The position numbers and the translations under genes were made by a program. Below are positions 3,743 through 44,760 of a stretch of 64,000 nucleotides of DNA, in pieces. Positions within the stretch are counted from its first letter, which is position 1, and the number at the start of each line of letters is the position of its first letter. The notes below the pieces were generated by a model. The model ran no database searches and had not been told where the DNA came from. It worked only from the letters and a program-made list of their open reading frames with translations. Source of the DNA: a phage; sequence record PZ452594.1. One strand, written 5' to 3'.

Positions 3743-4840
<1,098 letters not shown>

Positions 4841-6368: not shown

Positions 6369-7956
<1,588 letters not shown>

Positions 7957-25220: not shown

Positions 25221-25228
25221 GAGGACTT

Positions 25229-28200
25229 ATGGCTACTTTAAAACAAATACAATTTAAAAGAAGCAAAACCGCAGGTGCACGTCCTGCTGCTTCAGTATTA
25301 GCCGAAGGTGAATTGGCTATAAACTTAAAAGATAGAACAATTTTTACTAAAGATGATTCAGGAAATATCATTGATCTAGGTATTGCTAAAGGCGGTCAAA
25401 TTGATGGAAATGTAACTATTGATGGAACTTTACGCGTCAATGGACCAATAAACAACTTTGGAAATTTTTCTACAAATGGTACTATTACGGCAAGTAATAT
25501 TGTTTCTGCTACAGTATTCAGATCAACATCCGGTTCATTTTATACAAGAGCAATAAATGATACTGCAAATGCCCATCTTTGGTTTGAAAATACAAATGGC
25601 TCAGAACGTGGCGTTTTATATTCAAAACCGCAGTCTGAAAATGAAGGCGTAATTACAATGCGTGTTCGTCAAGGAACCGCTGCGGGAGCTCAAAATTCAG
25701 AATTTCATTTCATTTCTACTGATGGCGGTATCTTCCAGGCACGTAAGTTAACTGCTTTAACTTCTATTAGTACACCAACTATTAGTGTTAATTTAATTAA
25801 TCATGATTCTAAATCATTTGGACAATACGATTCACAATCTTTGGTTAACTATGTTTATCCTGGAACTGGTGAAACAAATGGCGTAAACTATCTTCGTAAA
25901 GTTCGCGCTAAGTCCGGTGGTACAATTTATCATGAAATTGTTACTGCCCAAACAGGCCTGGCTGATGAAGTTTCTTGGTGGACTGGTAATACACCGTTAT
26001 TTAAACTATATGGTATTCGTAACGACGGTAGAATGATTATTCGCAATAGCTTGGCCATTGGTACTGTGACGCAAGGGTTTCCGTCAAGCGATTATGGAAA
26101 TGTTGGGGCACTAGGAAATATATTTCTTGCTTTAGGTGATAATGGAACTGGTCTAGTTTATAGAAAAACCGGCGTATTTGATTTTGTTGGTTCTGGTTTA
26201 TCTTTGGCATCTATTACACCTGATAGTTTCCGTAGTACCCGTAAAGCAATTTTTGGTCGTTCCGAGGACCAAGGTACAACATGGATTATGCCTGGCACTA
26301 ATGCTGCTTTCTTGTCTGTTCAAACACAAGCTGATACTAACAATGCTGGAGACGGGCAAACTCATATTGGGTACAATGCTGACGGTAAAATGAGTCATTA
26401 TTTCCGCGGTAAAGGCAAAACTAATATTAATACTCAGGAAGGTGTGGACGTTAACCCTGGTATTTTAAAATTGGTAACTGGTTCTAATAACGTACAGTTT
26501 TATGCTAACGGAACAGTATCTTCAATACAAAGAATTAAATTTGATAATGGATTAGTTCTTACTGGTGCTAGACCCGATGGTATTCAACTTGACGCTCCTA
26601 CAACAACAGATGGCACTAAAACTATATTGTGGGCCGGTGGTACTCGCGCAGGTCAGAATAAAAGTTATGTATCTATCAAAGCATGGGGTAATGCCTTTAA
26701 CGCATCTGGCGATCGTTCCCGTGAAACAGTTTTTGAGGTAGGTGATGGGCAAGGTTACCATTTTTATTCTCAACGTGTAGCTCCTGCGCCTGGTTCGACT
26801 GTCGGGCCTATTCAACTACGAGTTAATGGTGGTTTATTAACTTCAGGTAGTATTGTTGCTTCTGGTTCTATTACAACCGAATCTTCTTTGAGTGTTAATA
26901 ATGGCATGTCAGTAAACGGTGAATTAAAGGTTGGTGGTACCGCAGATAACTTCCGTATTTGGAACGCTAAATACGGCGCTATTTTCCGTCGTTCAGAAGA
27001 TTCCTTGTATATAATTCCTACAGCCATTAACCAAGGCGAAAGCGGTGGAATAAGCGATATAAGACCGTTCAGTATTAACCTTGGCACTGGCTCTGTTGTA
27101 ATGGGTAACCATACTCAAGCGGGTAAAAACCTTTTCACGGTTGATAACGTTTCTAAATTAGTACAAACTGATGTTCGTTTCCGTGTTAACATGGATTCCG
27201 ACGGTATTGTTTTGAATGCTTCTTCTCAAGCAGCGTCTAACTTTATCCAAGGACGTAAAGCGGATGTTACAAAATGGTATCTCGGTATTGGCGACGGTGG
27301 TAACGTTGTTCGTTTACATAACTATACCTATTCCCACGGTATTGCATTAAACTCTGATACTGTAGATATTACTAAGCCTCTTAAAATTAATAATATTCGA
27401 ATTGGTACAGATGGCAACATCACAGGTGGTACTGATAATTTTGCCAATTTAAATACAACGTTAAACAATAAAGTCAATGTTGGTGGTTGGTCAGGCGGAG
27501 CTACAACTGGGTGGTATAAGTTTGCGACAGTTAATATTCCTCAATCTACTGGAACAGTATCATTTAAAATATATGGTGGTTCAGGATTTAATTTTAAAAG
27601 TTATGGGCAAGCTTCTGTCGCAGAAATAATTCTTAGAACTGGAAATAATCCTAAAGGACTTAACGCTACATTATGGAACAGAACTTCTGAAGCATTTTCA
27701 CAAATTGCTACAGTTAACACAAGCAATGATACATATGACGTTTATGTTTATGTGGGAGGATATTCAAATGCTTTAGTCGTCGAATATTCATGTACCAGTA
27801 ATAGTACAGTAACTGTTGTTGGTGTTAATGGAGGAATTCAACCTATTGTTGAAACACTTCCAGAAGGTCATGTAGTAGGTAAAACTGTAAGATTATTGAA
27901 TAACATCGATGGAATGTTTGCTGCTGGTGAATCTGATGTTGTTACTCGTGGTGAATTTGTTACCAATAACCAAAAAGGTTTACGCATTAAATCTAGAGGC
28001 AACGATATTGATTCTAATGCTGTTATTATTCGAAATGATGGTGGAAGTTTTTATATTCTAGCTACAGATAAGAATACATCATCAAATCCTGATGCTGCAT
28101 CAGGTAATTGGAATAATTTAAGACCTTTCTCCATTAATATGGCTGATGGTCGCGTTGGTATGAACCATGGTCTAAATATTACCGGCGGTGGCTTGAATGT

Positions 28201-29071
28201 TACTGGTGGCTTGAATGTTACTAGCGGTAATACTAGTTTAGGTAATATCTCGTCTCGTGTAGTAGCAGGTTGGCGAGGAGCGTCTGGTTGGGCTGATAAC
28301 TCGGATACAATGAAATCTAAAATCACCTTTATGGCAGACCATGGGGATTTATCTAATTCAGGCAGTTATTATCCTATTGTAGGTGCATACAGCAACTATG
28401 GTTCAGCAGGTTATCGTCAAACCTTTGAATTTGGATGGGTCGGCTCTGGTACCACCGCTGGGTGGCGAGAAGGTATTATTCGTATTCGCGGAGATAATGC
28501 TAACGGCCAGCAAGCAAGATGGCGCTTTACAATGAACGGTATTTTAGATTGCCCTGGTAAAGTACAGATGCCACAAACAAGCGCATTTGGTGTCAATACA
28601 ACAAATGGATGGGGTGGTAACTCAATTGCGATAGGTGATAGCGATACTGGTTTTAGACAAGTAGGCGATGGGCTTTTAGAAACATGGGCAAACAACGTTA
28701 AGGTCGTTCGTTATACTTCAAGTGAAGTTTATTCCGAGAAAAACGTCAACGCTCCTAACGTTTATATTCGTTCTGATATTCGTTTGAAATCTAATTTCAA
28801 GCCTATTGAAAACGCGCTCGAAAAGGTTGAACAACTTGATGGTTTAATCTATGACAAAGCTGAATATATAGGCGGTGAACCTGTCCAAACAGAAGCAGGT
28901 ATTATAGCTCAAACGTTGCAAGACGTTTTACCAGAAGCCGTCCGTGAAACAGAAGACAGCAAGGGTAATAAAATACTCACTGTTTCTTCTCAAGCCCAGA
29001 TTGCTCTTCTGGTTGAAGCTGTGAAAACACTTTCTTCTCGTGTAAAAGAACTTGAATCTAAACTTATGTAA
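25229..29071 (+). CDS. 37: gp37 long tail fibre distal subunit
   Basis: 1280-aa ORF following 36; C-terminal ~110 aa resemble a fibre chaperone-like domain. Confidence 0.9.
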
Positions 29072-29101
29072 AAGAGGGCTTCGGCCCTCTAAGGATTTTT
29101 A

Positions 29102-29887
29102 ATGGCAATTGTAGGTGTTCCTGGCTGGATTGGCGAATCTGCCGTGAATGAAACTGGACAACGCTGGATGGATGCTGCAATGAGAGCTGTTCGTGTTTCA
29201 GTTCCTGGTTGGATGAGCTCAATGGCTGGACAATCTAAAGAAGTATATTACAGCATTGGTGCTAGTAATTCTTATAATAAAGACACGTTAATAAACTGGA
29301 TAAAAGCCCAAGGCAGTACTCCTGTTGTTATTACTATTACAGGAAATATTGTTTCTCAATCTACTGGTGTTCCATGCTTAGATTTTCCTAGCTCATTAAC
29401 TAATGCATACGTGACACTTAATATCAATTCAGGCGTGCATGTTTGGGGCCGTGGCGGGAATGGCGGAAATAACTCTGCCGGTGGAGCAGGAGGAACTGCA
29501 ATAAATAATGGAATTGGAACTAGATTGCGTATTAACAACAATGGTGTTATCGCAGGAGGCGGTGGCGGCGGTGGAGGCGGATATTATTCTCCTTTTTCAC
29601 AAATGAAATTGACTTTTGGCGGTGGCGGCGGTCGTCCATTTGGTGCTGCTGGCGGGTCTGCTAATATGGAACAGGGCGCTACTGCTGGTACTATTTCTGC
29701 ACCTGGTAAAGGGTCTGTCAATGGTATCTATAATGGCGGGAATGGCGGTGATGCTGGTGCCGCAGGTGGTAAATGTAATATTCGTGGGCAAGGATCAGAA
29801 TATAACGGCGGTGCTGCTGGTAAGGCTGTTACTGGTAATGCTCCAACTTGGACTAAAGTTGGTACAATATATGGTTCAAGAGTATAA
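29102..29887 (+). CDS. 38: gp38 receptor-recognising adhesin (T2 type, glycine-rich)
   Basis: 261 aa with poly-glycine blocks (GGGGGGGGGY, GGGGGRPFGAAGG, NGGNGGDAGAAGG) separated by variable segments. Confidence 0.85.
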   Translation: MAIVGVPGWIGESAVNETGQRWMDAAMRAVRVSVPGWMSSMAGQSKEVYYSIGASNSYNKDTLINWIKAQGSTPVVITITGNIVSQSTGVPCLDFPSSLTNAYVTLNINSGVHVWGRGGNGGNNSAGGAGGTAINNGIGTRLRINNNGVIAGGGGGGGGGYYSPFSQMKLTFGGGGGRPFGAAGGSANMEQGATAGTISAPGKGSVNGIYNGGNGGDAGAAGGKCNIRGQGSEYNGGAAGKAVTGNAPTWTKVGTIYGSRV

Positions 29888-29918
29888 TTTTGAATAAATA
29901 TCCTTAAAAGGAGGGTCT

Positions 29919-30575
29919 ATGGCAGCACCTAGAATATCATTTTCGCCCTCTGATATTCTGTTTGGTGTTCTAGATCGCTTGTTCAAAGATAATGCTACCG
30001 GGAAGGTTCTTGCTTCCCGAGTAGCTGTCGTAATTCTTTTATTTATGATGGCGATTGTTTGGTATAGGGGAGATAGTTTCTTTGAGTACTATAAGCAATC
30101 AAAGTATGAAACATACAGTGAAATTATTGAAAAGGAAAGAAATGCACGCTTTGAATCTGTCGCCCTGGAACAACTCCAGATAGTTCATATATCATCTGAG
30201 GCAGACTTTAGTGCGGTGTATTCTTTCCGCCCTAAAAACTTAAACTATTTTGTTGATATTATAGCATACGAAGGAAGATTACCTTCAACAATAACTGAAA
30301 AATCACTTGGAGGATATCCTGTTGATAAAACTATGGATGAATATACAGTTCATTTAAATGGACGTCATTATTATTCCGATTCAAAATTTGCTTTTTTACC
30401 AACTAAAAAGCCTACTCCCGAAATAAACTACATGTACAGTTGTCCATATTTTAATTTGGATAATATCTATGCTGGAACGATAACCATGTACTGGTATAGA
30501 AATGATCATATAAGTAATGACCGCCTTGAATCAATATGCGCTCAGGCGGCCAGAATATTAGGAAGGGCTAAATAA
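29919..30575 (+). CDS. t: holin
   Basis: 218 aa; single N-terminal transmembrane segment and large periplasmic domain as in T4 T. Confidence 0.92.
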   Translation: MAAPRISFSPSDILFGVLDRLFKDNATGKVLASRVAVVILLFMMAIVWYRGDSFFEYYKQSKYETYSEIIEKERNARFESVALEQLQIVHISSEADFSAVYSFRPKNLNYFVDIIAYEGRLPSTITEKSLGGYPVDKTMDEYTVHLNGRHYYSDSKFAFLPTKKPTPEINYMYSCPYFNLDNIYAGTITMYWYRNDHISNDRLESICAQAARILGRAK

Positions 30576-30848
30576 TTATTTGTTCGTATACATCTCTAGA
30601 TATCGATATACACCCTCAAAACCCTCGTTGAATTCGTCGATGAGGGTTTTCTTATCTTCTTGAGTTAATTCAGAAACAATTTTACGGAATGAATTCTGAT
30701 TTAACTTTCTACCTTCATGCGTTACTCCAATCTCATTCAGAAATGCAATAAAATTAGCACGATTCTCAACAATATCTTCTCTGGAAAATTTAATCAAAAT
30801 AGACGCAACAGTAATAATTTCACGAACTGTATCAATGTTTTTATTCAT
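30576..30848 (-). CDS. asiA: anti-sigma-70 factor
   Basis: 90-aa ORF matching T4 AsiA by recall. Confidence 0.92.
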   Translation of the reverse strand: MNKNIDTVREIITVASILIKFSREDIVENRANFIAFLNEIGVTHEGRKLNQNSFRKIVSELTQEDKKTLIDEFNEGFEGVYRYLEMYTNK

Positions 30849-31009
30849 TAACTATACCACTCAATTAGTTGACTTTGTTATAATATCATCAGACGCTTGA
30901 TTTGTAAACTGGTCTGTGTTATTTTCTTCAAAAATTTTTTCTACGAATTCTTTGAACGACTCACGTTCCTGAGCTACATTATGCTCGATTACCTTTTCAA
31001 GATTATGAC

Positions 31010-31288
31010 TCATTCGAAATAATCTTCAATTTCATAATCATGGACATAAATCATTATAGTTTTTAATACATCATCAATACTTTTTCCTGGAGCTGGAATT
31101 ACGTAAAAATATCCTGCTTTTGAGAGGTCTTTATAAGTTCCAATTAAGAAATCATTATTCTCAAGATGTAGTTCTTCAACTAATTCATTAACAATTGAAT
31201 GGTATAAATTTGGTAGAAACTTATATAGCTTTTCTAGAATATCAATTTTGATTGTGTATTGAACCACGGACTGAGAATCAATAATCAT
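31010..31288 (-). CDS. arn: Arn-like anti-restriction protein (McrBC inhibitor)
   Basis: 92-aa ORF at the expected position. Confidence 0.55.
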   Translation of the reverse strand: MIIDSQSVVQYTIKIDILEKLYKFLPNLYHSIVNELVEELHLENNDFLIGTYKDLSKAGYFYVIPAPGKSIDDVLKTIMIYVHDYEIEDYFE

Positions 31289-31371
31289 AGACCTTCCCCT
31301 TATGTTTCTGTTTGCGATTAGATTCTTTAAACGCTTTCTTCTTATCCTTATGAACAGAAGCTTTATTAAAA

Positions 31372-31584
31372 TTATGTTTTGCGACTAAATTGTTCATAGT
31401 GCTGAATTACCTCTCTCAAACATTTGCATGTGAATGAAAACTTTTTAGCTACACCACATTCAAATATATGTTCTCTTAAATCGCGTGTATCGGTATATCC
31501 CATCTCAACAATAAAATGCCGTATTAGATTTTTATCATTGAGAGAATTAAAATAGTCAGATTTTGAATTAATTTCCCTGGCCAA
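31372..31584 (-). CDS. hypothetical protein
   Basis: 70-aa ORF containing cysteines. Confidence 0.45.
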   Translation of the reverse strand: MAREINSKSDYFNSLNDKNLIRHFIVEMGYTDTRDLREHIFECGVAKKFSFTCKCLREVIQHYEQFSRKT

Positions 31585-31864
31585 ATTGAATCACCTTCAG
31601 TTGACGTTTTAGCTCTTTTATCATTTCTTCGTTCATCGCAATATAAAGATCGCGTAAAGCAGGTTTTAGCATGTCATTTATTATAGAACTAAATGGGCAT
31701 ACATATTCTTTTCCTACAAGCTTTTTGGTGAATTCCATATCACAGAACTTAAATCCCGGCTCATTGGTATAAATTCCCCAATTAGTTGACATCATTTTAT
31801 TGGCATATTCTAGTGCCTGGATTTGATTCATAATTCCATCAATTTGAAACTTTTTAATATTCAT
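31568..31864 (-). CDS. hypothetical protein
   Basis: 98-aa ORF. Confidence 0.5.
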   Translation of the reverse strand: MNIKKFQIDGIMNQIQALEYANKMMSTNWGIYTNEPGFKFCDMEFTKKLVGKEYVCPFSSIINDMLKPALRDLYIAMNEEMIKELKRQLKVIQFGQGN

Positions 31865-32325
31865 TAGTAAAGGTCCTCAGAGTAAAGTTCTTTTTCACTA
31901 CCACCACGTTCAATACGTACTTGTCCAGCGTAAGTTGCAATAATCATTGCTTCTTCACGTGTCCAATAATTACTATATTGGTCAATAAACCCTTGGTCAT
32001 CATCACAAACTTGCTGAGTAACTAATTGAGGTTTAACTACATCTAAAACTTCTGCCATATCTTTAGAATAATGACGAGCACCTGGAATAATAAGAGTTCG
32101 TCCATCTTTTAATTTAAAACGGTTGGCTGCACAGACAATTCGTCGTTGATACTTTTGGTTTTCATCCCAATATGCAGTCTGCCAACAGATTTCAGGAACT
32201 TCTTTCAGAATATCTTCTTCTGTACATTTATAACCATGCGCTTTAAATTTTTCAACAAGACTTTCTGGAGTCTCACGAGATAAAGGCACATTCAGCATTT
32301 TTAAACGATTAATAAATGGGTTCAT
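31864..32325 (-). CDS. hypothetical protein
   Basis: 153-aa ORF. Confidence 0.5.
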
Positions 32326-32651
32326 TTAAACCATCCTTTAATACGTTGCCACAAAGTTTTCTGTTGAGCTTTGTTAACACCAATTGAGCGAATAACTGGT
32401 TGAGATTCCTGGAATTCTTTATAATCAGCAAGGTAAATTTCGTAAGCTGCATCCGTAAATGAACTTATCGCTGCCATAAAATTATTGCGAATACCTACTG
32501 GAGCATCTTTACTTTCACGAATAATCATGTATTTACCAGTCTTAATCTTTACAATAGTTCCAAGATAAGCTCCATGGTACCAAATATCCCAACCCTCTTG
32601 TGTAGGTTCTGCACAACGACGAAGTTCATTAACAATTTCTAACTTGTTCAT
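32322..32651 (-). CDS. hypothetical protein
   Basis: 109-aa ORF. Confidence 0.5.
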
Positions 32652-32661
32652 TATTTATTCC

Positions 32662-33297
32662 TCACAGTTCAGATGCTACAGTGATTACAGCTTCAATGTT
32701 TTCTGCTGAGCGTTTAATGTCAAGATACACATTACCGTTTTTAGCGATTTTACATGACATTCCGATGTCAGTAAATTTCTGAATATGATGTTCCATCATT
32801 TTGTATCCAAAAATTCGCATATTTCCATTATTGTTAATTTCAAAATTGCGAATTCCATGAGTACGTTTTTCTAAAATAGCAAGATAATTACTACGATAAG
32901 TTTCAACCTTTTTAAGAACAAATCCATTTTCATCTAAAAGTTTTAACATGAGGTCTTTATCTTCTTCCATATCGGAAGTAATCTCGCGAGCTTTACGAGT
33001 TGCTCGTTTTTTCAGTAGTTCCGGAGCATTTTCCTGTGCGTATAAAGTTGCTGCGTTTGAAATAATATCCTGAGCTTCACCTGTAATGATTAATCCATCA
33101 CCAGATTTCTCCACCAGGCCTTTTTTAATCAATACCCCAATATTACTATTAACTACTGCGTTACCTAAATCTGGATGCACCTCACGAACTTCTGCAGCTG
33201 TAATGAAATCTTTCTTAGCAATAGTAATTAAAATCGCAGCAGTTTTTTCATTCAGAACATCGTTAGAAGTTTTGATGATGTAAGTTACTTTAGACAT
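32662..33297 (-). CDS. motA: MotA middle-transcription activator
   Basis: 211-aa ORF matching T4 MotA in length and position. Confidence 0.9.
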   Translation of the reverse strand: MSKVTYIIKTSNDVLNEKTAAILITIAKKDFITAAEVREVHPDLGNAVVNSNIGVLIKKGLVEKSGDGLIITGEAQDIISNAATLYAQENAPELLKKRATRKAREITSDMEEDKDLMLKLLDENGFVLKKVETYRSNYLAILEKRTHGIRNFEINNNGNMRIFGYKMMEHHIQKFTDIGMSCKIAKNGNVYLDIKRSAENIEAVITVASEL

Positions 33298-33338
33298 TTT
33301 CTAATCTCCGTAATTCTGTATCAGTAGTTGATAGTTGT

Positions 33339-33368
33339 ATAGTACCACAGTATGCTTTGGTTGTAAAC
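33339..33368 (-). promoter_or_regulatory. T4-type early promoter (GTTTAC-18-TACTAT) upstream of motA
   Basis: GTTTAC 33363-33368, -10 33339-33344, AT-rich UP region; conserved box GTAGTTGATAGTTGTATAGTACCAC. Confidence 0.65.
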
Positions 33369-33391
33369 CGTTTTGTGAAAAAAATTTAAAA

Positions 33392-33418
33392 TAAAAAAGG
33401 GAGAGCCTCGGCTCTCCC
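33392..33418 (-). terminator. intrinsic terminator
   Basis: Hairpin GGGAGAGCC / GAG / GCTCTCCC followed by U-run on the minus-strand RNA. Confidence 0.6.
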
Positions 33419-33423
33419 TAAAA

Positions 33424-33573
33424 TTACTGCTCGAACGCGATAACTATCGTGATAACACGTTGAATTCCGAACGCAAGAAGACCTCCTGCTACGGCTGGAA
33501 CAACGCCTAAACCCGCCAGTAAAATGCTACCAGATACTAATGCAGCGCTTGTAATACCTATGAATGGACTCAT
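33424..33573 (-). CDS. small hydrophobic protein, 49 aa (below track cutoff)
   Basis: ATG overlaps the gene 52 stop (ATGA); predicted membrane peptide MSPFIGITSAALVSGSILLAGLG... Confidence 0.45.
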   Translation of the reverse strand: MSPFIGITSAALVSGSILLAGLGVVPAVAGGLLAFGIQRVITIVIAFEQ

Positions 33574-34898
33574 TTGATTTCCTCTAAATCTTTGGCGTAT
33601 TCTGTAACTACATCAGTAGTTTTCCAATATTCGTTTTCTTCTTTTTTAGCTTTAGCTTCTTCAGCAAGTTTCTTCGCTTCATCGGAAGTCATATGAAAAA
33701 TATTCATTCCAACTAGTTTATCAACATAAGAAGAATACATATCGATTTTCGAAAGTTCTTCGGTCAGTTCTTTACGAGTTTTACCCTGTACAACAATTTC
33801 ACCTGAAATTACTTTCTTAATGAAATGTGCCTTGGCAAAGGCTAAACGAAAAGCTGACTCAGTTTCTTTAATTTTGTTATCAATTCGTTTTTGAACATAA
33901 GTTTTACGAACTTCAACAAAGTCTTTAATTAAATCAACTACGTTATCGTAAACTTGTAGTTTTCCTTTCTCATTAATGACGGTAATATTCTGAGAACGAC
34001 GCTCAATCAACCCGAAGTCTTTCATAATTTTTGCATGGCGTTCTTCTTCGTTATCGCTCAAAGAATATTCTTTACGGAATTTAACTTTGAACCCAAAACC
34101 ATGCTCACCACAAGCATCATCCCACGTAATGAAGCCTTTATCTTCAAGTGGGTCTAAGATTTTACTCACATAAGTTTCACGATCATACTTATACGGAATC
34201 TCAGTGATATGCATTTGAGTTCGTGAAGTAAACTTATATGTTCCACGAATTTCATATTGCCCATCAATTTCAACGACTTCACCACGAAATTCTGGGAATT
34301 CTACCTTCGGTTTAGTTACTTTCTTTCCTTGAAGAGCTTGTAATACAGCTTTCTTAACAGAAGAAACACTATGAGGAAGAATGTAAGTTGCATAACCAGT
34401 TGCAATACCGGAAACGCCATTAAGAAGAACAGTAGGAATAATAGGCAAATAGAAAGCAGGCGGAATGTGTTCTTTATCTTGATGTACCGGAGCATATTCA
34501 GTATCTTTATATACGTTATAGAAATTTTTACTTACACGAGCAAAAATATAACGACTTGCTGCTGCTTTTTGGACGGTACGAGAACCAAAGTTTCCTTGAC
34601 CATCTAACAGAGGAAAGTTATTATTCCAAGTGTTAGCCATCAAAGCACCTGCGTCTTGCGCAGAGTTTTCACCATGATGATATCCAAGGTCCGCTACACC
34701 GCCTGCGATAGAAGCGAGTTTGTGAAACTTATCTTTATTTCCTCGTGCCAAATCAAGAGCTCGAGCAATAACAAATCGTTGAACTGGCTTAAATCCATCA
34801 ATCATATTTGGAATGGCACGATTTTCAACCGTGTACATAGCATAAGCCAATGCTTCATTATCAATGATACTTTTTAAATCGCGATTATTCAGTTGCAT
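33570..34898 (-). CDS. 52: gp52 topoisomerase II medium subunit (GyrA-like)
   Basis: 442-aa ORF; length and position as T4 gp52. Confidence 0.92.
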   Translation of the reverse strand: MQLNNRDLKSIIDNEALAYAMYTVENRAIPNMIDGFKPVQRFVIARALDLARGNKDKFHKLASIAGGVADLGYHHGENSAQDAGALMANTWNNNFPLLDGQGNFGSRTVQKAAASRYIFARVSKNFYNVYKDTEYAPVHQDKEHIPPAFYLPIIPTVLLNGVSGIATGYATYILPHSVSSVKKAVLQALQGKKVTKPKVEFPEFRGEVVEIDGQYEIRGTYKFTSRTQMHITEIPYKYDRETYVSKILDPLEDKGFITWDDACGEHGFGFKVKFRKEYSLSDNEEERHAKIMKDFGLIERRSQNITVINEKGKLQVYDNVVDLIKDFVEVRKTYVQKRIDNKIKETESAFRLAFAKAHFIKKVISGEIVVQGKTRKELTEELSKIDMYSSYVDKLVGMNIFHMTSDEAKKLAEEAKAKKEENEYWKTTDVVTEYAKDLEEIK

Positions 34899-34902
34899 AA
34901 AT

Positions 34903-35043
34903 TTACCATACTAGTGAATGTAGTGCCATAATAACATCAGAAATGAAAAGCACGACTTGAATTAATCCGAACATTACTCCATAATATAGTGCTATTAATA
35001 AAATAGCAAGGGCTAATGAATAGCCCAAGATTTTCTTAATCAT
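34903..35043 (-). CDS. small hydrophobic protein, 46 aa (52.1-like; below track cutoff)
   Basis: ATG overlaps the stop of the next ORF; sequence MIKKILGYSLALAILLIALYYGVMFG... Confidence 0.4.
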   Translation of the reverse strand: MIKKILGYSLALAILLIALYYGVMFGLIQVVLFISDVIMALHSLVW

Positions 35044-35191
35044 TAGATAACAACACAAATGTTAAATATGCACACATACCCTGAGCTAAAGCTTGCGAAA
35101 ACACACTGCTGGCATCAATACAGATAGTTAAAACACATGCTACTATCCAACAAATAAATGAAATAACTCCTAATAATTTTGCAATATTCAT
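35036..35191 (-). CDS. ac: small membrane protein, 51 aa (ac-like; below track cutoff)
   Basis: SD GAGGAAAATA before ATG; 51 aa hydrophobic (MNIAKLLGVISFICWIVACVL...). Confidence 0.5.
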   Translation of the reverse strand: MNIAKLLGVISFICWIVACVLTICIDASSVFSQALAQGMCAYLTFVLLSND

Positions 35192-35198
35192 ATTTTCC

Positions 35199-35279
35199 TC
35201 ACTGGCGTCCGAAGACGCCTTTAGTTTTAAAATTATTACGATAGAACTGCATCACATGTTCGTTATGGAAATTACTCAT
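35199..35279 (-). CDS. stp: Stp peptide, 26 aa (below track cutoff)
   Basis: [29 protein letters not shown]; ATG overlaps ndd stop; matches T4 Stp by recall. Confidence 0.8.
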
Positions 35280-35737
35280 TAATATGCCTGCAAAACAAAT
35301 TTAAAGTTATCAGCCAACATACGGTTCATTTCTTCAAGTGTTTGATACTCAGAATGATGATTACGAGTAAACGCCAAAGCTAACTGACCTTTACCAAATC
35401 CTGTCGTCAGAGGTTTCATCTTAGAAGCAGGCAGATAAAATACTGTGTATGGAACATTGTTATTTGCAATAGTACGTGCAAGCTGAGACCGACGTTGACG
35501 AATATGACTTAGAACTGCACTGAATCCTTGCTTAGAACGCTGATTACCTACATAAAATCGTGCAGACACACATGGATTACTAAATGGACGACCATCTAAT
35601 TTACTTACTAAAAAGTAAAATCCAGGTTTAGATAAAATATCTTTATGCGGAGTTCCCAAAAACCATTCACCACCCTTGATTGTACCAATAACGGTAGCGC
35701 CCGCATTATTCAGATCAGTAACAGTCATGTATTTCAT
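35279..35737 (-). CDS. ndd: Ndd nucleoid disruption protein
   Basis: 152 aa from internal ATG with SD GAGGAAATTAAT. Confidence 0.85.
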
Positions 35738-35797
35738 ATTAATTTCCTCTAAATTATTTTCTACTCCAAGGCCGCATGAATACACACGGCCATTAAA

Positions 35798-36013
35798 TTA
35801 ATCGTCGCAGTCGACGCTCAATTCCCAAAACTCTTCTACGGTATAAGTTTCAGTATCATTTTCAATACAGAAACGTTCATTACTATTGTTTGCTAAAGTA
35901 GCGTTAACTGTCATTTTCTCGCTGGTGCTCTTAAGAGGTGAAATACGAATTAACTGATCGCCGTTATCTAAACAAAAAATTTCACCAACTTTTACATCTT
36001 TAAAGATTTTCAT
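35798..36013 (-). CDS. hypothetical protein (ndd.1-like)
   Basis: 71-aa ORF. Confidence 0.45.
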   Translation of the reverse strand: MKIFKDVKVGEIFCLDNGDQLIRISPLKSTSEKMTVNATLANNSNERFCIENDTETYTVEEFWELSVDCDD

Positions 36014-36128
36014 AATTCACCTCAAGGAGTATAAAATCCAAACGCAGTTGTTGACCATCCCATCCAATACGGGAAATTTGCGCCAATGTAAAACATAAGA
36101 ATATAAAACCAACCGCTCAGCAAATTCA

Positions 36129-36347
36129 TCATTTTACACCATTCCAAATTGTTTCAATCACGGATTTTAAACCATTTTGATGAATATCAATTCCGACAAC
36201 TGCCATCAAATAGATTCCAACTACAACTGAACCCAAGGCGAAAATCAGCATGAAAATGAATAAAGCCGGAAAAATATTATCGAAAAACCATTCAATAAAT
36301 GTAAAAGCACTGCGTTTACGCTTCATATTTTCCTCACATAAATCCAA
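36129..36347 (-). CDS. small membrane protein
   Basis: 72 aa with two hydrophobic segments. Confidence 0.5.
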   Translation of the reverse strand: MDLCEENMKRKRSAFTFIEWFFDNIFPALFIFMLIFALGSVVVGIYLMAVVGIDIHQNGLKSVIETIWNGVK

Positions 36348-36447
36348 AGTAAACGTTTAATACATCAATCATTAAAACGATTGGGAATATACTCAAAACT
36401 ATTAGTATTATAACTACATTCCATATAGCTTTAACAATCTTTTTCAT
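36334..36447 (-). CDS. small membrane peptide, 37 aa
   Basis: Internal ATG with SD GGAGGAACAGAAA; track extension lies in the promoter. Confidence 0.45.
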   Translation of the reverse strand: MKKIVKAIWNVVIILIVLSIFPIVLMIDVLNVYFGFM

Positions 36448-36475
36448 TTTCTGTTCCTCCGTAGTTGATAGGGTA

Positions 36476-36505
36476 ATAGTACTACGGAGGAACAGTCTTG
36501 TAAAC
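36476..36505 (-). promoter_or_regulatory. T4-type early promoter (GTTTAC-18-TACTAT)
   Basis: GTTTAC 36500-36505, -10 36476-36481; 14-bp inverted repeat CTGTTCCTCCGTAG / CTACGGAGGAACAG flanks the -10. Confidence 0.55.
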
Positions 36506-36754
36506 AACTTTTTTAAAAATATTCGTAATAAATGTGAATACCAATCACTACTGCCGAAACCTGTGCAACCCACCACGCACAAGCAATAAGTACAGAATTC
36601 AAAATTTTCATAATAACCTCATCACAAAAGTAAATGTTAAACAAATTACTGGAATACTAATTAACCAAACAAAACACCACCATAATGAACTCATAGTTCA
36701 ATCTCAGCGATTTTCATTTTATTCTCCAAATCTGTATCAGTAGTTGATAGTTGT

Positions 36755-36784
36755 ATAGTACCACGGTCCTTGTGGTATGTAAAC
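36755..36784 (-). promoter_or_regulatory. T4-type early promoter (GTTTAC-18-TACTAT)
   Basis: GTTTAC 36779-36784, -10 36755-36760; conserved box as at 33339 and 62983. Confidence 0.6.
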
Positions 36785-36799
36785 CATTTTGTGAAATTT

Positions 36800-37357
36800 T
36801 TAAATGGAAAGATACCATCCGTTGTAGTTGCTTTTTCTTACAACCTTACGAAGGTCTTCTCTGTCACCGATGAACTTCGGAGTGTACTGGATGACACCTG
36901 GATGAATTTCTTTAGTGTTGAATATAATTATACAGTCAGCGACTTGATGATTCAGAATGGGCCCTAGATTTATTCCAGAACCGTATGGATACTCTCCGCT
37001 GCATCCGGTTGTTACCGAAATCCATCGTGAGTCAGTTTGATGTGTTTTGACTTCTACACGAAGCCCACAGTATTTTGGATGCGCCAATACATCCCATGCA
37101 TATGTATATGGGTCATTAACATCCTCTTGGCCTTTGTTAACATACCCGCTTAGCCAATCTGCTACAAAAAATTCTGCGTACACAGCGATACGACATCTTT
37201 CAATAACTTCTGCTTTATCCTGGTTCGGGTTTTGTTTTAAAGAGTATCTTGCTGTATCAGCAATTTTGGCCTTCATTTCACTAGTCAAGTCACTGTTCGA
37301 TAGGGTAAATGTCGGAATCTGAAATAGTCTCTGCAAACCCGGATTCGTTTTCTGCAT
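36800..37357 (-). CDS. denB: endonuclease IV
   Basis: 185-aa ORF; length and position as T4 DenB. Confidence 0.8.
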   Translation of the reverse strand: MQKTNPGLQRLFQIPTFTLSNSDLTSEMKAKIADTARYSLKQNPNQDKAEVIERCRIAVYAEFFVADWLSGYVNKGQEDVNDPYTYAWDVLAHPKYCGLRVEVKTHQTDSRWISVTTGCSGEYPYGSGINLGPILNHQVADCIIIFNTKEIHPGVIQYTPKFIGDREDLRKVVRKSNYNGWYLSI

Positions 37358-37420
37358 TTAAACTTTCCTTTATGTCGGAATCATAATTTCCCTTAAAACA
37401 AAAGGGCCGAAGCCCTTATT

Positions 37421-37615
37421 TTATTTGAATTGTGCAATTCTTTTTTCTAAACAATCTGCGTAAGATTTCATTGAGATGAACTGTGAAAGCAACAGTTCTT
37501 GCTCAACTGCACTAACCGTTAGAAACTTTGCGCTTTCTAAAAATTTGCTAAGTGCATTAATTTTGAGCATTAATTGATCGTATTCTTCTTTTACTCGTGC
37601 TTGATAACCTAACAT
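37421..37615 (-). CDS. hypothetical protein (rIIB.1-like)
   Basis: 64-aa ORF flanked by GGGC-CGAA-GCCC hairpins. Confidence 0.5.
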   Translation of the reverse strand: MLGYQARVKEEYDQLMLKINALSKFLESAKFLTVSAVEQELLLSQFISMKSYADCLEKRIAQFK

Positions 37616-37643
37616 AATTTTCCTTAGTTAAGGGCCGAAGCCC

Positions 37644-38582
37644 TTATTTAAATTGTTCAGTAACGTCTTCAACTACTTCGTATTGGCAGGTACGCATTTT
37701 AGCATCGTTGTAATCAATCGGAATTGATACTACATCACGCGGATGTACTTTAACTTTTACGACTCGGATGGTTGAACTGCCAAAGTGACGAATATAAGAT
37801 TTAGAACATACATGCAGACCACGAGAACAAGTTTGTGTATCATCGTCATTCACACGAGTACGTGGCATTTTAACTACTTTACCCGGACTGTTATCAAAGG
37901 TGTTTGAGTGACAGTCAAAGTAATTGCTGCGAACTACTTTCCAAGCATAGAAGTAACCATCTTCTGTAATTTCAATATCGTTTGCTACCAAGAAATCAAA
38001 GAGTCGAGATACTGCTTTTTGGCTCGGGTTTTCCAACAGATTTTCCAAGAACGGAAAATAAAATTCAAAGTTTTCGCCTTTTTCCATCGAATCGAGAATA
38101 CGATCAACTAAACCAGACCGCAATTCAATATTTTGATAGAACAAGCTTCCACCTTCAATTCGAACATCACCGGAAATATATTTTTCAACAGCGCGTCGAA
38201 CATTAATTTTTTGTGCAGCTTCTTCTAATTTATCTGCAACAAGCAGATTAAGAATTTCCTGGAAATTTGAATGAGTATTAGGGGTTGCGTTATAAGTTAC
38301 ACCATCAACAGTAATTGAAATGAATTTTTTAGATGCATTCCAAATAATGTCAGATTTAGCAACTGGAGCAATAACTGCATCGCTATTAACTTTAACTGTA
38401 ATATCACCGCTAATAGTAACTTTAGGGTGTTTAGCTTCTTCAGCATTTTTCAAAACACGACGGATTGTGTCAACCGATACACCTTGCCAATCAGCCAATT
38501 CCTGCTGAGTGTAATTACCACTTGAATACAGTTTAACAATTTCAGCTTGTTCGTTTTTGGTCAGGCATTTAATATTGTACAT
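37644..38582 (-). CDS. rIIB: rIIB protein
   Basis: 312-aa ORF directly downstream of rIIA. Confidence 0.9.
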   Translation of the reverse strand: MYNIKCLTKNEQAEIVKLYSSGNYTQQELADWQGVSVDTIRRVLKNAEEAKHPKVTISGDITVKVNSDAVIAPVAKSDIIWNASKKFISITVDGVTYNATPNTHSNFQEILNLLVADKLEEAAQKINVRRAVEKYISGDVRIEGGSLFYQNIELRSGLVDRILDSMEKGENFEFYFPFLENLLENPSQKAVSRLFDFLVANDIEITEDGYFYAWKVVRSNYFDCHSNTFDNSPGKVVKMPRTRVNDDDTQTCSRGLHVCSKSYIRHFGSSTIRVVKVKVHPRDVVSIPIDYNDAKMRTCQYEVVEDVTEQFK

Positions 38583-38593
38583 AATTTTCCTTA

Positions 38594-40771
38594 TTAGGCC
38601 GCAAGGGCCTTCATAGTTTTGGCGATTTGGGAAACTTCATCATCACTTAAAGAGTTGCGATATCCGATGAAGTCGGAAACAATACGGAATTTCTTGGTAA
38701 ACTCAGCAACCATTTTATCACTGTTTTTTGAAGCATTATTTGATAATACATCAAAAAGATTAGTTACTGTCCAGATGTCATGACCGATGGTATCTTTTCC
38801 ACCATTGAAATATACGCCCCGTAATGAACTAACTATATTAGCGAGTCGTGTATATTCTTCAGAAACATCATCTGTACTGAAATACTTCATCATAAAATCT
38901 AGTTCAGGATATTTAATAATTTTATCAATATATCGTTGAGCTGAACTTGAATAACCTACATACTTATCATAATCTACATCATCAAAAGCATCTACATATA
39001 AATCACGCAAAGCTTCAAAAATACATTGGCACTGACCGAGTTCTTTTACCTTTTTCTGTAAAAGCGGACGAATAACATAAAATTCATTAATGCCAATAAG
39101 ATTAGCCATACGAATCAAAATATTCATAGATGGATGACAAAGAGATGTAGTACCATCCATAGAGAAAATATCAGAACGATGCATATACGCTACATAACCA
39201 GTAATTTCATCTGCTTCTGATGTGAGCGTAAATAATTCCTCTTTTTCCCAACGCCCATCTTTAATTTCAAACTTAAACGCTGTAGCAGCTTTAGGACGAG
39301 GAGCTTTACTTTTAACTACCTTTGGAATATAACTTTTTACTAAAGCTTCAATTTCTGACAAATAATGAATGTTAACTTCATCACTTTCAAACATCGCCAT
39401 AATATCAGGGAGTAAATCAATCTGCGATTCTACTTCTGGGTTAATAAACAGAAGGCGTTCGTTATGATGAATATTTAAAGTGTTATTAAATTCACTATCA
39501 TCTAACGCATGTGCTAATCCACGGACAATATTAACACGATTTTTAATATTATCAATAACGATATTAATTTTTGTTGTATTAATACCAAACAGACGATAAC
39601 TTGATGCAACGGCTGAAGTTTCATGACTTTGCTTAATGCGCTTCAGTCGAGGGTCAAGATTTACTTCATACACAACTCCTGCATTGCATAACTTACTATC
39701 AGGTTCAAACATGCTTTGCATCTTCTTATATGACAGATTTTTAGTCGTAAATTTGACTGAATTACTAATCATATAATCTCGAGCAGAATACCCCATCTTC
39801 ATCAATTCACGATATGTATGACGGGGAGATGTGGATTCTTTAAATCGTTTTACATCTTCATTAAATGCTTTCTCACTGAGTTCTTTAACTCGTTCAATAA
39901 TATTTTTACGAGTACGATCATCCAGTGAAAGAGCCTCGCGAGATGGAGCAATATCAAGTGAACCCATTGGAAACTTAATGTAATTCACTTCATTGCGAAT
40001 GCTTAGCCAGTTACGGTCTCTAATAACACCATCGATAGGATAAACAATACCGCCATAGATAGCATATAATCCACCACGATCAGGCCAGTATCTTTCTGGA
40101 TTTACACCATAATAATCATCAAAATCCGGAAAATAATCAATTTCACGGTCAAGACCATTAATGATAGCCAAATCTTTGAACGGTCGCATGATATAAGAAA
40201 CTTCATAAGCAAAGTTTCTAAAGTCTTTTTCTTCAACTGGAACTACGATTTCAATACCAGTTTTATCATCTGGACCCATTTCTTTTACGAATGTAGGTTT
40301 AATCTGTGGACCATCACCATCCATGTAAGCTACATAACCACGAATTTCACCTTTATGATACGAAGTAATACTAAACGTATCAGTATAACTAAATGGAGAT
40401 TTAGAACCTAAACCAAATCCGCCAATAAAGTCATTAGATTCGGCTTTCGATGAACTGAAGTATGAATTATACAACCCAGGAGAATTATCATCACCTTGAA
40501 TATCAAAATCACTCATACCCGGACCAAAATCTCGACAAACAAATCGTGGATCTAATCGTCCTGGAACTTGAATGATAAATTTTTCAGGATTTCCATTGAG
40601 AGCATGGGCATCAATCATGTTGGTAATCAATTCACGGACTACTGCGCGAATCTTGTTTGTATACAAATCAGATGACAGAATTTTAAATACTTTAGGATTT
40701 GCTGCGATGCTAAATGCTTTTGATTTAGCACCATTACCAAGAATTGTTTCTTTTTCAGTGGTGATAATCAT
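38594..40771 (-). CDS. rIIA: rIIA protein
   Basis: 725-aa ORF; matches T4 rIIA in length and N-terminal sequence by recall. Confidence 0.92.
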
Positions 40772-40781
40772 AATTTCCTCA

Positions 40782-40985
40782 TTAATTCATATTGCGTTTA
40801 ATAACTTCAGCAACTTCTAGTAGTTCATCTTTAGTTGCGGTGTCGGATTGAATTTTATCTCTAATATCCTTAAAGCGGTTTTTAAACTCTTCGGCTTCTC
40901 CCATATCGAAAAAGCGTTGAATGATTCTATATTCTCGATGAACTGCTTTATCAAAAAGTTCTAAATTTACTCTGTATGATTTCAT
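40782..40985 (-). CDS. hypothetical protein (rIIA.1-like)
   Basis: 67-aa ORF with SD GAGGATATTGAA. Confidence 0.5.
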
Positions 40986-41010
40986 TTCAATATCCTCATT
41001 TGCCCAATTA

Positions 41011-41040
41011 ATTATACCACATCCTTGTGGTAAAGTAAAC
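41011..41040 (-). promoter_or_regulatory. T4-type early promoter (GTTTAC-18-TATAAT)
   Basis: GTTTAC 41035-41040 and TATAAT 41011-41016; spacer contains the inverted repeat CCACA...TGTGG. Confidence 0.6.
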
Positions 41041-42860
41041 TACTGGCTCATCCATTCTTTGCGAAGGTCAGCATTATCTCCCATGAGCATTTCAAAAAGC
41101 TCTTTCCAGTTCTCAGGAAGTTTAACAACATCATATACTGGGTTTTGAATCATCTCACGATATTCAGATTTTTCTAAAGAGCCAAGTCCCTTAATATAAC
41201 GGATGCTATGTTTAGGTAGAGCATCTTTAGCACTCTCATATTCAGCGACTGTATAAAACCATTCTTGTTTTTTACCGACCTGAGCGATGATTACAGGAGT
41301 TTTGACAAAGCGAATTCTTCCTTGTTCAAACAGTTCTGGCCAATTACTAAAAAATCCGAGCAGAGAAGGATAAATGCTTCCTAGACCATCATGGTCAGCA
41401 TCAGTCATAATAGCAATATTATGATAATTCAAGTTTTCAGCTTTTTCACCGAGAACTAGACCAGTGATTGCGCAAATATCAAATAGTTCTTTGTTTTTAA
41501 GCATATCTGCATAAGACATACCCCAACTGTTGAGAACTTTACCACGTAATGGATAACCACCATGAAGTTCTTTATCACGAACATCAATAAGATATCCGAT
41601 AGCAGAATCACCCTCAGTCAAGAAAAGAGTAGTGTCAGCATCTTTACCACAAAGATTCGCTTTGATATGTTTATGAACCTTAGCTTTAGAAGCCTTTTTA
41701 GCTGCTTTAGTTTCTGCTGCTTTTTCTGCCGCCAATTTACGAGCCAAAGCAGCTTCGATAATCGGCATTAGAATTGCTTCATTATTTAGAATAGCACGTG
41801 AAATCTTTTTAGCATCAAGCTGAATATGACTACGGATTTCACCAAATGGAGAAGTCAAACGCTCTTTAGTTTGAGAATCAAATCGCATGTTTTTCATATC
41901 ACGAACAAACATAACGATAGTCAAACATTCTTTGACACGCGCTTTAGTCACATCAATTTTGAACTTACGTTTGATTTGTGGAATAAGGTCTTCACAAATA
42001 TCATCCATAACACAGTCAATGTGATGGCCACCATTCTTAGTGTGGATGTTATTCACATAAGTTAATTGACGAAATCCATCCGGTGAACGACCAACCGCAA
42101 TAGAACAATTTTCTTGTTCTTGAACGATAGCATGCTCATCATATTGGCGTGCATATTTCTTAAAATTGCCCTGAACCTTTTTACCATTAAAGGTAAATTG
42201 AATATCAGGATAAACAACAGCAAGTGTCTGGAGACGATCTAGTGTAATGTCAAGATAAACTTGGGACAGCTCATTAGTTTCAAATGACATAAAATCAGGA
42301 ATGAAAGTAACACGAGTTCCTTTCCATTTTCCTGGAATAGTTTCCCATGATTTATTTTCCATGCCATTTGAACAACGAACTACAATATTATTTTGACCAT
42401 CGCCAGTTTCACCGACAAACATCACAGAAAAAATGTTAGTTAAACTAGAACCAACACCATTCATACCACCGGTGACACGTTCTTTATCATCACCAAAGTT
42501 ACCACCCGCTTTTGGAATAGTCCAAGCAGCAACTGGACCAGGAATTTCTTCACCGGTAGGTGTTTTAACCATCGCTTGTGGAATACCACGACCGTTATCT
42601 TCAACTGTTACTTGATTGTTTTTGATGGTAACATTAATTTTATTCGCGAATTTAAACTTAGTACGAATACCTTCATCTACTGAGTTATCGATAATTTCAT
42701 CAATAAGCTTAACAAGACCAGGTACATACTGAACACTTTCCCATTTACCAAACAGAAAGCGCTCATGCATTTCATTAGCAGAAGAGCCAATGTACATGCC
42801 ACTACGCTTTTTGATATGTTCAATATCGCTCAGAATTTTAATTTCATTCTTAATCATCAC
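41040..42860 (-). CDS. 39: topoisomerase II large subunit (GyrB-like), single unsplit ORF
   Basis: 606-aa continuous ORF; GHKL ATPase N-terminus and TOPRIM-like region (LTEGDSA). Confidence 0.92.
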   Translation of the reverse strand: MMIKNEIKILSDIEHIKKRSGMYIGSSANEMHERFLFGKWESVQYVPGLVKLIDEIIDNSVDEGIRTKFKFANKINVTIKNNQVTVEDNGRGIPQAMVKTPTGEEIPGPVAAWTIPKAGGNFGDDKERVTGGMNGVGSSLTNIFSVMFVGETGDGQNNIVVRCSNGMENKSWETIPGKWKGTRVTFIPDFMSFETNELSQVYLDITLDRLQTLAVVYPDIQFTFNGKKVQGNFKKYARQYDEHAIVQEQENCSIAVGRSPDGFRQLTYVNNIHTKNGGHHIDCVMDDICEDLIPQIKRKFKIDVTKARVKECLTIVMFVRDMKNMRFDSQTKERLTSPFGEIRSHIQLDAKKISRAILNNEAILMPIIEAALARKLAAEKAAETKAAKKASKAKVHKHIKANLCGKDADTTLFLTEGDSAIGYLIDVRDKELHGGYPLRGKVLNSWGMSYADMLKNKELFDICAITGLVLGEKAENLNYHNIAIMTDADHDGLGSIYPSLLGFFSNWPELFEQGRIRFVKTPVIIAQVGKKQEWFYTVAEYESAKDALPKHSIRYIKGLGSLEKSEYREMIQNPVYDVVKLPENWKELFEMLMGDNADLRKEWMSQ

Positions 42861-42926
42861 TTATCCTCGTTTGGTTTCGGGAATATTATACTCCGGTAAT
42901 CATAAAGCTAAAGGCCCGAAGGCCTT

Positions 42927-43196
42927 TTATTTAAAACGGATAGTCGAATCCTTGAAGAATAGACCAGAACACACGGTTCCTTCTACTTTCTGCCCAGTAG
43001 GTCCAATAGCACGAAATCCAGTATGCTGGAAATCATTTTCAGAGCAACCGAACCAGTTATATCCAGTGATTTCAATATTCGTAAAACCACTTGAAGATAA
43101 AACTTTGGTTGCATTATCAGCATCAGTACATCCTGCTAAAGACACTGCTAATACTAATGCTGCGATAGAACGATTAACATATTTCATAATTTTCAC
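42927..43196 (-). CDS. putative lipoprotein
   Basis: 89 aa; signal peptide with lipobox LAGC. Confidence 0.5.
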   Translation of the reverse strand: MKIMKYVNRSIAALVLAVSLAGCTDADNATKVLSSSGFTNIEITGYNWFGCSENDFQHTGFRAIGPTGQKVEGTVCSGLFFKDSTIRFK

Positions 43197-43564
43197 TTAA
43201 ATTTAATGGCTTGAAGAAGACTAATAACTCTCAAGCGACTTCTTTCATCTTTAACTGTAAAAGAAAGAGGGTCACCAGATTTCATAGTAATGGTACATTC
43301 AAAATCAAAATCTTCTGTAACTTCTTCGAAGAAGTCAAATTCTTCATCATAAATTAGAACATTACTCTGACAACTATGAAGAATTTTTCCATCATTTCCA
43401 GATGCTGTACTAATCATTGTAACATTATGACCTTTCATATCTTCAACGATAAATTCACTAGTCAATATTACAGCATTAATAGAACTATTCCTATTACTAG
43501 CAGAAAGTAGATATTTCTGTTCTTCACCTTCACGAATGCAATATTTCTTACCGATTTTAAACAT
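43193..43564 (-). CDS. hypothetical protein
   Basis: 123-aa ORF. Confidence 0.5.
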   Translation of the reverse strand: MFKIGKKYCIREGEEQKYLLSASNRNSSINAVILTSEFIVEDMKGHNVTMISTASGNDGKILHSCQSNVLIYDEEFDFFEEVTEDFDFECTITMKSGDPLSFTVKDERSRLRVISLLQAIKFK

Positions 43565-43566
43565 AA

Positions 43567-43743
43567 TTACCCTTTAAGTAAGTCGTAAAAACCACCATTC
43601 ACATGCTTAGGAGCAGAAGGCCGACGAGTAGACAAACGATGACATTTAGGGCAAACATCATTTTCTCGTTCAGAAATCTTTTTAATTTTTTCATATTCAT
43701 GCCCGCAATCTTCGGATTGGCATTTATAATCATACATTGGCAT
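43567..43743 (-). CDS. zinc-ribbon protein, 58 aa (FmdB-like; below track cutoff)
   Basis: Hand-translated MPMYDYKCQSEDCGHEYEKIKKISERENDVCPKCHRLSTRRPSAPKHVNGGFYDLLKG; two CxxC-type pairs. Confidence 0.5.
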   Translation of the reverse strand: MPMYDYKCQSEDCGHEYEKIKKISERENDVCPKCHRLSTRRPSAPKHVNGGFYDLLKG

Positions 43744-43745
43744 AA

Positions 43746-44165
43746 TTATTCCTTAAAGTGTGCTTTCAACATCTGATACAAGGACCATGCCTGTTCATTA
43801 TTTTCAATAGTAACTTTCATGACTGGGAATTCTGTGAAATCTTCTATTTGTTCTTGCTCTTTCTCTTCCTGCTCTTCAGCTGCCTGGTATGGATTTTCAA
43901 CTTCATCAAAGAACCCAGCTTCGTTAGTAGAAAGCCAGATAAAGTTTTCGTCAAGGATATCACCATGTGTTGCATATCCAACTGTGCCAGTAGATGTCAC
44001 AATTTTAGTAGGACGACCAAGATGGTCAACATCTAAAATTTTAAAAGGATGCATACCTAAACGGCGTGCATAGATTCCGTTATCAGTATGGTCTTTAATA
44101 AAATTTTCTTGAGCTTGTTTATTTTTAAATTGATACCATTTATTAACTTCAAATTTAATAGCCAT
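43746..44165 (-). CDS. hypothetical protein (possibly goF-like by position and length)
   Basis: 139-aa ORF with acidic central region. Confidence 0.4.
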
Positions 44166-44413
44166 TAATAAATTTCCTTCCAGTAAGTTGTGCCATCTTC
44201 AGTAATTTCACGAAATACACCGTAAATTGGTTGTTTATCACCAACCTTTTCATACACATAAACCGAAGTCAAGTGAGTAAACTTGATGGTGTGTTCCTTT
44301 TGAACTACTACCAAATCTGGATCGAATAATACATCTTCAAATTCGTCATTAGTGCAATTCTGAACAATTTTACGTTTCATTACAATTTCCTCATTAATTG
44401 AACAGTGGAGCAA
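44165..44413 (-). CDS. hypothetical protein
   Basis: 82-aa ORF. Confidence 0.45.
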
Positions 44414-44675: not shown

Positions 44676-44760
44676 GTTGTTTTCTGTATCAGTAGTTGAT
44701 ATTGATATAGTACCATAATCAACTACTGATGTATATAGTTTTATGAAAAAATTTTAAACT

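Follow-up and report, generated by a model that had tools for sequence, protein, structure and literature searches.

The early genes stp, ac and 52.1 in the interval between gene 52 and ndd of a T4-like phage

In phage T4, three very small genes lie between ndd (165585-166040) and gene 52, namely stp (165505-165585), ac (165342-165497) and 52.1 (165209-165349), and the transcripts of all three are classed as early (PMC9697503 Table S2). Activation of PrrC, a latent anticodon nuclease acting on tRNA-Lys, requires Stp, the product of the first gene; Stp alone suffices for it and acts via EcoprrI, the type IC complex that silences PrrC (PMC3014915). It also inhibits EcoR124I, and not type IA enzymes (PMC3014915). 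The cleaved tRNA-Lys is healed by the T4 polynucleotide kinase (Pnk) and sealed by RNA ligase 1 (Rnl1) (PMC3014915). According to the same review, Stp activity is carried by the N-proximal 18 residues, which are almost absolutely conserved among T4 relatives and are implicated in the interaction with EcoprrI. Loss-of-function stp suppressor mutations cluster at residues 4-14, and deletion of the last 8 codons reduces both activities only moderately (PMC3014915). A 2025 review still describes the way in which Stp inhibits EcoprrI as unknown (PMC12707154), and a literature search for recent structural studies of Stp and type IC enzymes gave no result. Stp and PrrC are a textbook example of how a host defence can sense an anti-restriction factor.

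The second gene, ac, encodes 51 aa (156 bp) in T4, and its loss leads to acriflavine resistance (bioRxiv 10.1101/2025.06.30.662393). According to the hypothesis put forward in that 2025 preprint, Ac blocks the AcrAB-TolC efflux pump; the same block appears as an assumption in a PNAS paper of 2026 (PMC13250531). For all three T4 proteins, Stp, Ac and gp52.1, shotgun proteomics gave no detection (Class_P = NA; PMC9697503 Table S2), which is not surprising for products this small or this hydrophobic.

Three short genes between ndd and gene 52

The DNA analysed here, a stretch of 64,000 nucleotides from a phage (further referred to as the window), carries three back-to-back minus-strand ORFs at positions 34903-35279, between gene 52 and ndd. 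Using an ORF list with a 20-aa minimum, these were found to encode 46, 51 and 26 aa (Table 1). The initial annotation had placed three small ORFs here; its coordinates, lengths and peptide sequence proved to be exact, and re-annotation at the 20-aa minimum returned all three. In the same list, no ORF of 60 aa or more is present inside the interval on either strand, so a 60-aa ORF threshold would miss stp, ac and 52.1. The frame of 52.1 also opens at an upstream TTG (34903..35058, 51 aa).

Table 1. Features of the window discussed in the text, with their coordinates and the matches or properties on which each is based
Feature	Position	Strand	Description and evidence
pseT	3932..4837	-	Polynucleotide kinase/3'-phosphatase, 301 aa; PF25109 PNKP phosphatase 2.2e-59, PF13671 AAA_33 kinase 7.8e-23
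rnlA (gene 63)	6369..7493	-	RNA ligase 1, 374 aa; PF09511 RNA_lig_T4_1 2.1e-25, PF20819 T4_Rnl1_C 1.7e-39
motA.1 counterpart	33424..33573	-	49 aa; T4 gene matched by position
gene 52	33570..34898	-	Topoisomerase II medium subunit, downstream neighbour; PF00521 9.4e-77
52.1	34903..35043	-	46 aa from ATG at 35043, MIKKILGYSL...HSLVW (MIKKILGYSLALAILLIALYYGVMFGLIQVVLFISDVIMALHSLVW); PF24129, phrog_3595
Promoter-like site	35009..34981	-	TTGCTA-17-TATTAT; overlaps the second 52.1 hairpin, ~80 nt upstream of gene 52
Second 52.1 hairpin	35008..34990	-	Adjacent to the first
First 52.1 hairpin	35026..35010	-	Terminator-like on both strands
ac	35036..35191	-	51 aa from ATG, MNIAKLLGV...LLSND; ORF, phrog_2501
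stp	35199..35279	-	26 aa; ORF, PF08133, phrog_6763
stp hairpin	35204..35219	- (RNA)	GGCGUC-UUCG-GACGCC; inside stp codons 21-25 (G21-R25), ~14 nt upstream of the ac ATG
ndd	35279..35737 (from its ATG)	-	Nucleoid disruption protein, upstream neighbour; PF06591 1.4e-95
ndd.1 counterpart	35798..36013	-	71 aa; T4 gene matched by position
ndd.2 counterpart and ndd.2a/ndd.3-type ORF	36022..36347	-	36 aa from ATG (ndd.2) and 65 aa; by position

Based on comparison with T4, the names that had been proposed for these ORFs could all be retained. The 26-aa peptide aligns with T4 Stp (UniProt P62765) at 25/26 identical residues, and the same holds for RB27 Stp; residues 1-16 and 18-26 are identical, and L17F is the sole change. 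Ac is identical to T4 Ac (UniProt P18924) over 51/51 residues and has the same place between stp and 52.1, with no difference at the protein level. The 46-aa product matches T4 gp52.1 (UniProt P18922) in 44/46 residues (96%), the differences being A14I and V17I. It is nearly certain that the window comes from a T4-like phage (Tequatrovirus), whose early genes run on the minus strand, and that 34903-35279 on this strand carries its stp, ac and 52.1, T4 early genes that stand here in the run ndd-stp-ac-52.1-52. The biochemical activities attached to these products below are taken over from the T4 literature.

Next, the junctions were read on the minus strand. The stop codon of ndd overlaps the ATG of stp by 1 nt (TAATG), an arrangement also seen in T4, RB27, T2, JS10, YUEEL01 and ESh30. 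Behind the TGA of stp, a 7-nt spacer leads to the ATG of ac (TGAGGAAAATATG), with a strong GAGGA Shine-Dalgarno sequence 5 nt before this ATG; the spacer and its GAGGA are shared with T4. The genes ac and 52.1 share 8 nt (ATGATTAA), the ac stop lying 5 nt inside 52.1, and the TAA of 52.1 is followed by ATTT (4 nt) and the ATG of gene 52. The T4 gene 52.1 likewise overlaps ac by 8 nt and ends 4 nt before gene 52. In this junction read, no recognisable Shine-Dalgarno sequence was found ahead of the 52.1 ATG. With overlaps of 1 nt and 8 nt and gaps of 4 nt and 7 nt, the layout is, by its geometry, compatible with translational coupling.

A search with the 1.2-kb region retrieved 576 phage records, in 494 of which the match covered 80% or more of the region, and the best match in the phage record collection was vB_EcoM_Maryam (98.5%). 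Nine loci were compared, belonging to Tequatrovirus (the window, T4, RB27, T2, YUEEL01 and ESh30), Dhakavirus (JS10) and Gaprivervirus (VR7 and UPEC07). The order ndd, stp, a small hydrophobic protein, 52.1 and gene 52 is kept in all nine loci and thus in all three genera. The T4, RB27 and T2 records annotate stp, ac and 52.1 in the same relative positions, and the T4 reference coordinates give lengths, gaps and overlaps exactly as in the window. In five further IMG/VR loci retrieved with an Ndd query, which are close to the others and add little diversity, the stp, ac and 52.1 ORFs are intact as well. With a 20-kb query (25000-45000), no record of the phage collection exceeded 93-96% identity over 91-94% coverage. 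Because the 20-kb query reaches only these values, the window is read as a mosaic Tequatrovirus, with no collection record closer over the 20 kb queried.

Since stp, ac and 52.1 have been part of the T4 annotation for decades, recognising them here fills a gap in annotation; it is no discovery, and its value in that respect is small. The practical value lies in annotation, as a 60-aa ORF floor systematically misses a known anti-restriction and defence-trigger gene. In most of the matched T4-like records, the position of the Stp match bears no label other than 'ndd' or 'hypothetical protein'. The counterparts of motA.1, ndd.1 and ndd.2 and the 65-aa ORF (Table 1) are further short ORFs in the cluster, so stp, ac and 52.1 are not the sole genes below 60 aa that a length threshold misses.

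Annotation of the locus also varies among the individual records. In YUEEL01 (L006) and ESh30 (L008), stp is left out. In phage G28 (L013), all three genes are without annotation and a 'terminator' is the only feature at the site. The 52-aa ORF called in UPEC07 (L007 1123-1281) consists of Stp and 26 upstream codons, and the ESh30 annotation lengthens 52.1 to 53 aa.

Stp, its F17 allele and the tRNA repair genes

Stp of the window matches PF08133 (anticodon nuclease activator, Nuclease_act) with residues 1-26 on profile positions 1-26 (4.2e-20, 71.2 bits versus a cut-off of 25) and phrog_6763 over its full length (3.8e-20). A GRAVY of -1.07 and a net basic composition, obtained by hydropathy calculation, make it look like a soluble peptide. 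The initial annotation had described Stp as the trigger of the host PrrC anticodon nuclease, which agrees with the textbook account (PMC3014915). One qualification applies: published work presents Stp first and foremost as an inhibitor of type IC restriction enzymes (EcoprrI, EcoR124I), with PrrC activation as the answer of the host.

Both tRNA repair genes, pseT at 3932-4837 and rnlA at 6369-7493, were said to lie in the same window, and domain matches confirmed this (Table 1). The Pnk and Rnl1 pair has the expected domains, i.e. a kinase and a HAD phosphatase in pseT, and an adenylyltransferase and a C-domain in rnlA. All three phage-side components of the T4 Stp / EcoprrI-PrrC / Pnk-Rnl1 circuit (stp, pseT and rnlA) are accordingly in the window. 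The likeness covers the phage side; the EcoprrI hsd genes and prrC belong to the host and not to the phage genome. By the mechanism known from T4, the 26-residue cytoplasmic Stp would block DNA restriction by binding to the type IC restriction-modification complex of the host (EcoprrI and likewise EcoR124I). In prr+ hosts, this binding would unmask the associated PrrC, leading to cutting of the tRNA-Lys anticodon loop, and the polynucleotide kinase/phosphatase of pseT together with the RNA ligase 1 of rnlA would then mend the cut tRNA-Lys. The joint presence of stp, pseT and rnlA suggests that on prr+ hosts the phage would resemble T4 in triggering PrrC and repairing the damage.

The difference from T4 Stp at residue 17 was absent from the initial annotation. 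It leaves 17/18 of the N-proximal residues as in T4, with no change at residues 4-14. A tblastn search of Stp against 50,697 phage records yielded 30 records at 99% identity or more and 423 in the 95-99% band. The F17 allele is also present in Shigella phage ESh30, Escherichia virus CAM-21 and IMG/VR locus L016, and is a minority natural allele that already exists in public phage genomes.

Could F17 Stp be functionally different from T4 Stp? It might, for example, keep its anti-restriction activity and activate PrrC more weakly, or be tuned to another type IC enzyme, in which case the interplay of Stp and PrrC known from T4 would not hold for this phage without modification. Residue 17 does fall within the 18 N-proximal residues that are almost absolutely conserved and implicated in the EcoprrI interaction, the allele is in the minority (30 records versus 423), and it recurs in the independent genomes of ESh30, CAM-21 and L016. 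However, a change from L to F is a conservative hydrophobic one, it lies outside the suppressor cluster at residues 4-14, and the retention of Pnk and Rnl1 is expected if PrrC is still being triggered. The position is also not strictly invariant: divergent Stp peptides keep L, but that of phage Stevie has I alongside many other changes. On balance, we regard such a functional difference as quite improbable. Full activity of F17 Stp is an assumption here.

Stp homologues also exist outside the Straboviridae, as revealed by tblastn and locus comparison. The Kagunavirus siphophages RP180 (a Raoultella phage; L009 1501-1578) and K1ind3 (L010 1501-1578) encode unannotated homologues with 23-24/25 residues identical to T4 Stp, and in both of them stp is the first gene behind a strong promoter-like site. 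More divergent homologues, in which the H-x-x-HVMQ-x-YR core is kept, were found in the Drexlerviridae phages P817 (L011 1483-1575) and Stevie (L012 1501-1581). In these two phages, a polynucleotide kinase gene lies within ~1-1.5 kb of the Stp homologue.

Hairpins within stp and 52.1

The 3' part of stp, where the C-terminal codons are dispensable, contains a hairpin with a perfect six-pair stem closed by a C(UUCG)G tetraloop, which occurs once in the window and lies just ahead of the ribosome-binding site of ac. This hyperstable tetraloop was first described in T4 mRNA (PMC4371310). The hairpin is present in 7/9 of the T4-like phages compared and in the 5 IMG/VR loci; it is kept in T4, RB27, ESh30, JS10, VR7 (with a UUUG loop) and UPEC07 (with one U·G pair). 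Among the nine phages, those lacking it are T2 and YUEEL01, which share an allele with a different C-terminus. Nor does the Kagunavirus stp have it: there, the same GVFG residues are encoded by non-pairing codons. In phage G28, the hairpin carries the 'terminator' annotation. No U-tail follows it on the coding strand, and it is the plus (antisense) strand that has a T-rich tail (TTTAGTTTTA). The motif CTTCGG is about 2-fold over-represented in the window, with 24 occurrences observed versus 12.6 ± 3.7 expected. The 131-nt RNA around stp folds no better than its shuffles (z = -1.25), and the local UUCG hairpin alone stands out.

Two adjacent hairpins span codons 6-18 of 52.1 (34990-35026), within the first third of the gene. 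Across the nine sequences, 99.1% of the cells pair, a value reached by 0/500 shuffles. One C-G to U-A swap links position 2 of codon 14 with position 1 of codon 17, which makes residues 14 and 17 of gp52.1 co-vary (I14/I17 versus T14 or A14 with V17). The I14/I17 pair of the window is also found in T2 and in IMG/VR loci L016-L018. This conservation and covariation is only suggestive, as it comes from nine related sequences and the structure was derived from the same set.

If these elements are functional, the stp and 52.1 hairpins could set transcript ends, mRNA stability or the translation of ndd-stp versus that of ac-52.1-52, and they would also constrain the peptide sequences. A reading by which the stretch from stp to 52.1 doubles as an RNA-structure module and, separately, F17 Stp has an altered specificity is rather unlikely in our estimation.

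Coding evidence and the variable position of ac

For gp52.1, a match to PF24129 (DUF7396) was obtained over residues 1-46 of 46 (1.3e-22, 80.1 bits versus a cut-off of 27), as well as a full-length match to phrog_3595 (2.3e-25). Its GRAVY of 1.80 in the hydropathy calculation is membrane-protein-like; the values for gp52.1, Ac and Stp all fit the way these products are annotated in T4. Selection was analysed as pN/pS from summed pairwise Nei-Gojobori counts over the nine T4-like phages. For 52.1, this resulted in a pS of 0.29, a pN of 0.047 and a pN/pS of 0.16, with 12/4/23 variable sites at the three codon positions. The first 20 codons of stp have a pN/pS of 0.25, and their variable sites are distributed as 5/3/9. 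The 46-codon frame of 52.1 is intact in 14/14 sequences from three genera. Both 52.1 and stp are under coding-type purifying selection. As a protein gp52.1 is predicted, with the coding evidence drawn from the sequence.

An opposing view would be that 52.1 is untranslated and that its conservation reflects RNA or DNA signals serving gene 52, i.e. the hairpins and the promoter-like site inside it. The T4 proteome study detected no protein, the ATG has no recognisable Shine-Dalgarno sequence before it, and two conserved hairpins and the TTGCTA-17-TATTAT site are packed into the 5' third. On the other hand, the frame has exactly 46 codons in all 14 sequences of the three genera, and with a pN/pS of 0.16 the third-position variable sites predominate over the whole length of the gene and not merely in the hairpins. 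Moreover, curated Pfam and PHROG families exist for the product, and whichever allele occupies the position of ac, its stop overlaps the 52.1 start codon (ATGATTAA), a typical coupling arrangement. An untranslated 52.1 is for these reasons very improbable, and a translated gene 52.1 is the reading that we retain.

There is practically no chance that the three ORFs are fortuitous reading frames of an AT-rich intergenic spacer. None of them reaches 60 aa, and short ORFs are common in AT-rich DNA (59 ORFs of at least 20 aa in 4 kb), but their proteins are identical or near-identical to those of genetically defined T4 genes, the synteny is conserved, the selection is purifying, and with family E-values of 1e-20 to 1e-25 this explanation was rejected.

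Ac has a match to phrog_2501 (2.2e-25), and the family search returned no Pfam family for the 51-aa protein. Its GRAVY of 1.46 and its hydrophobic windows at residues 1-32 and 34-48 are membrane-protein-like, as far as a hydropathy calculation goes. Ac, a predicted 51-residue membrane protein of the acriflavine-sensitivity or 'acridine resistance' locus, would make infected cells acriflavine-sensitive. RB27-type phages have a 52-aa version (…LSTND), unlike the 51-aa Ac of T4 and the window.

The slot between stp and 52.1 is polymorphic. In the window and loci L003-L008, at least four dissimilar hydrophobic proteins of 50-55 aa occupy it, which can be grouped into T4, ESh30, JS10/UPEC07 and VR7 types. 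All of these slot proteins have -ND as their last residues, by which the overlap of their genes with the start of 52.1 (ATGATTAA) is maintained. In the T2 reference record, ac is disrupted (truncated).
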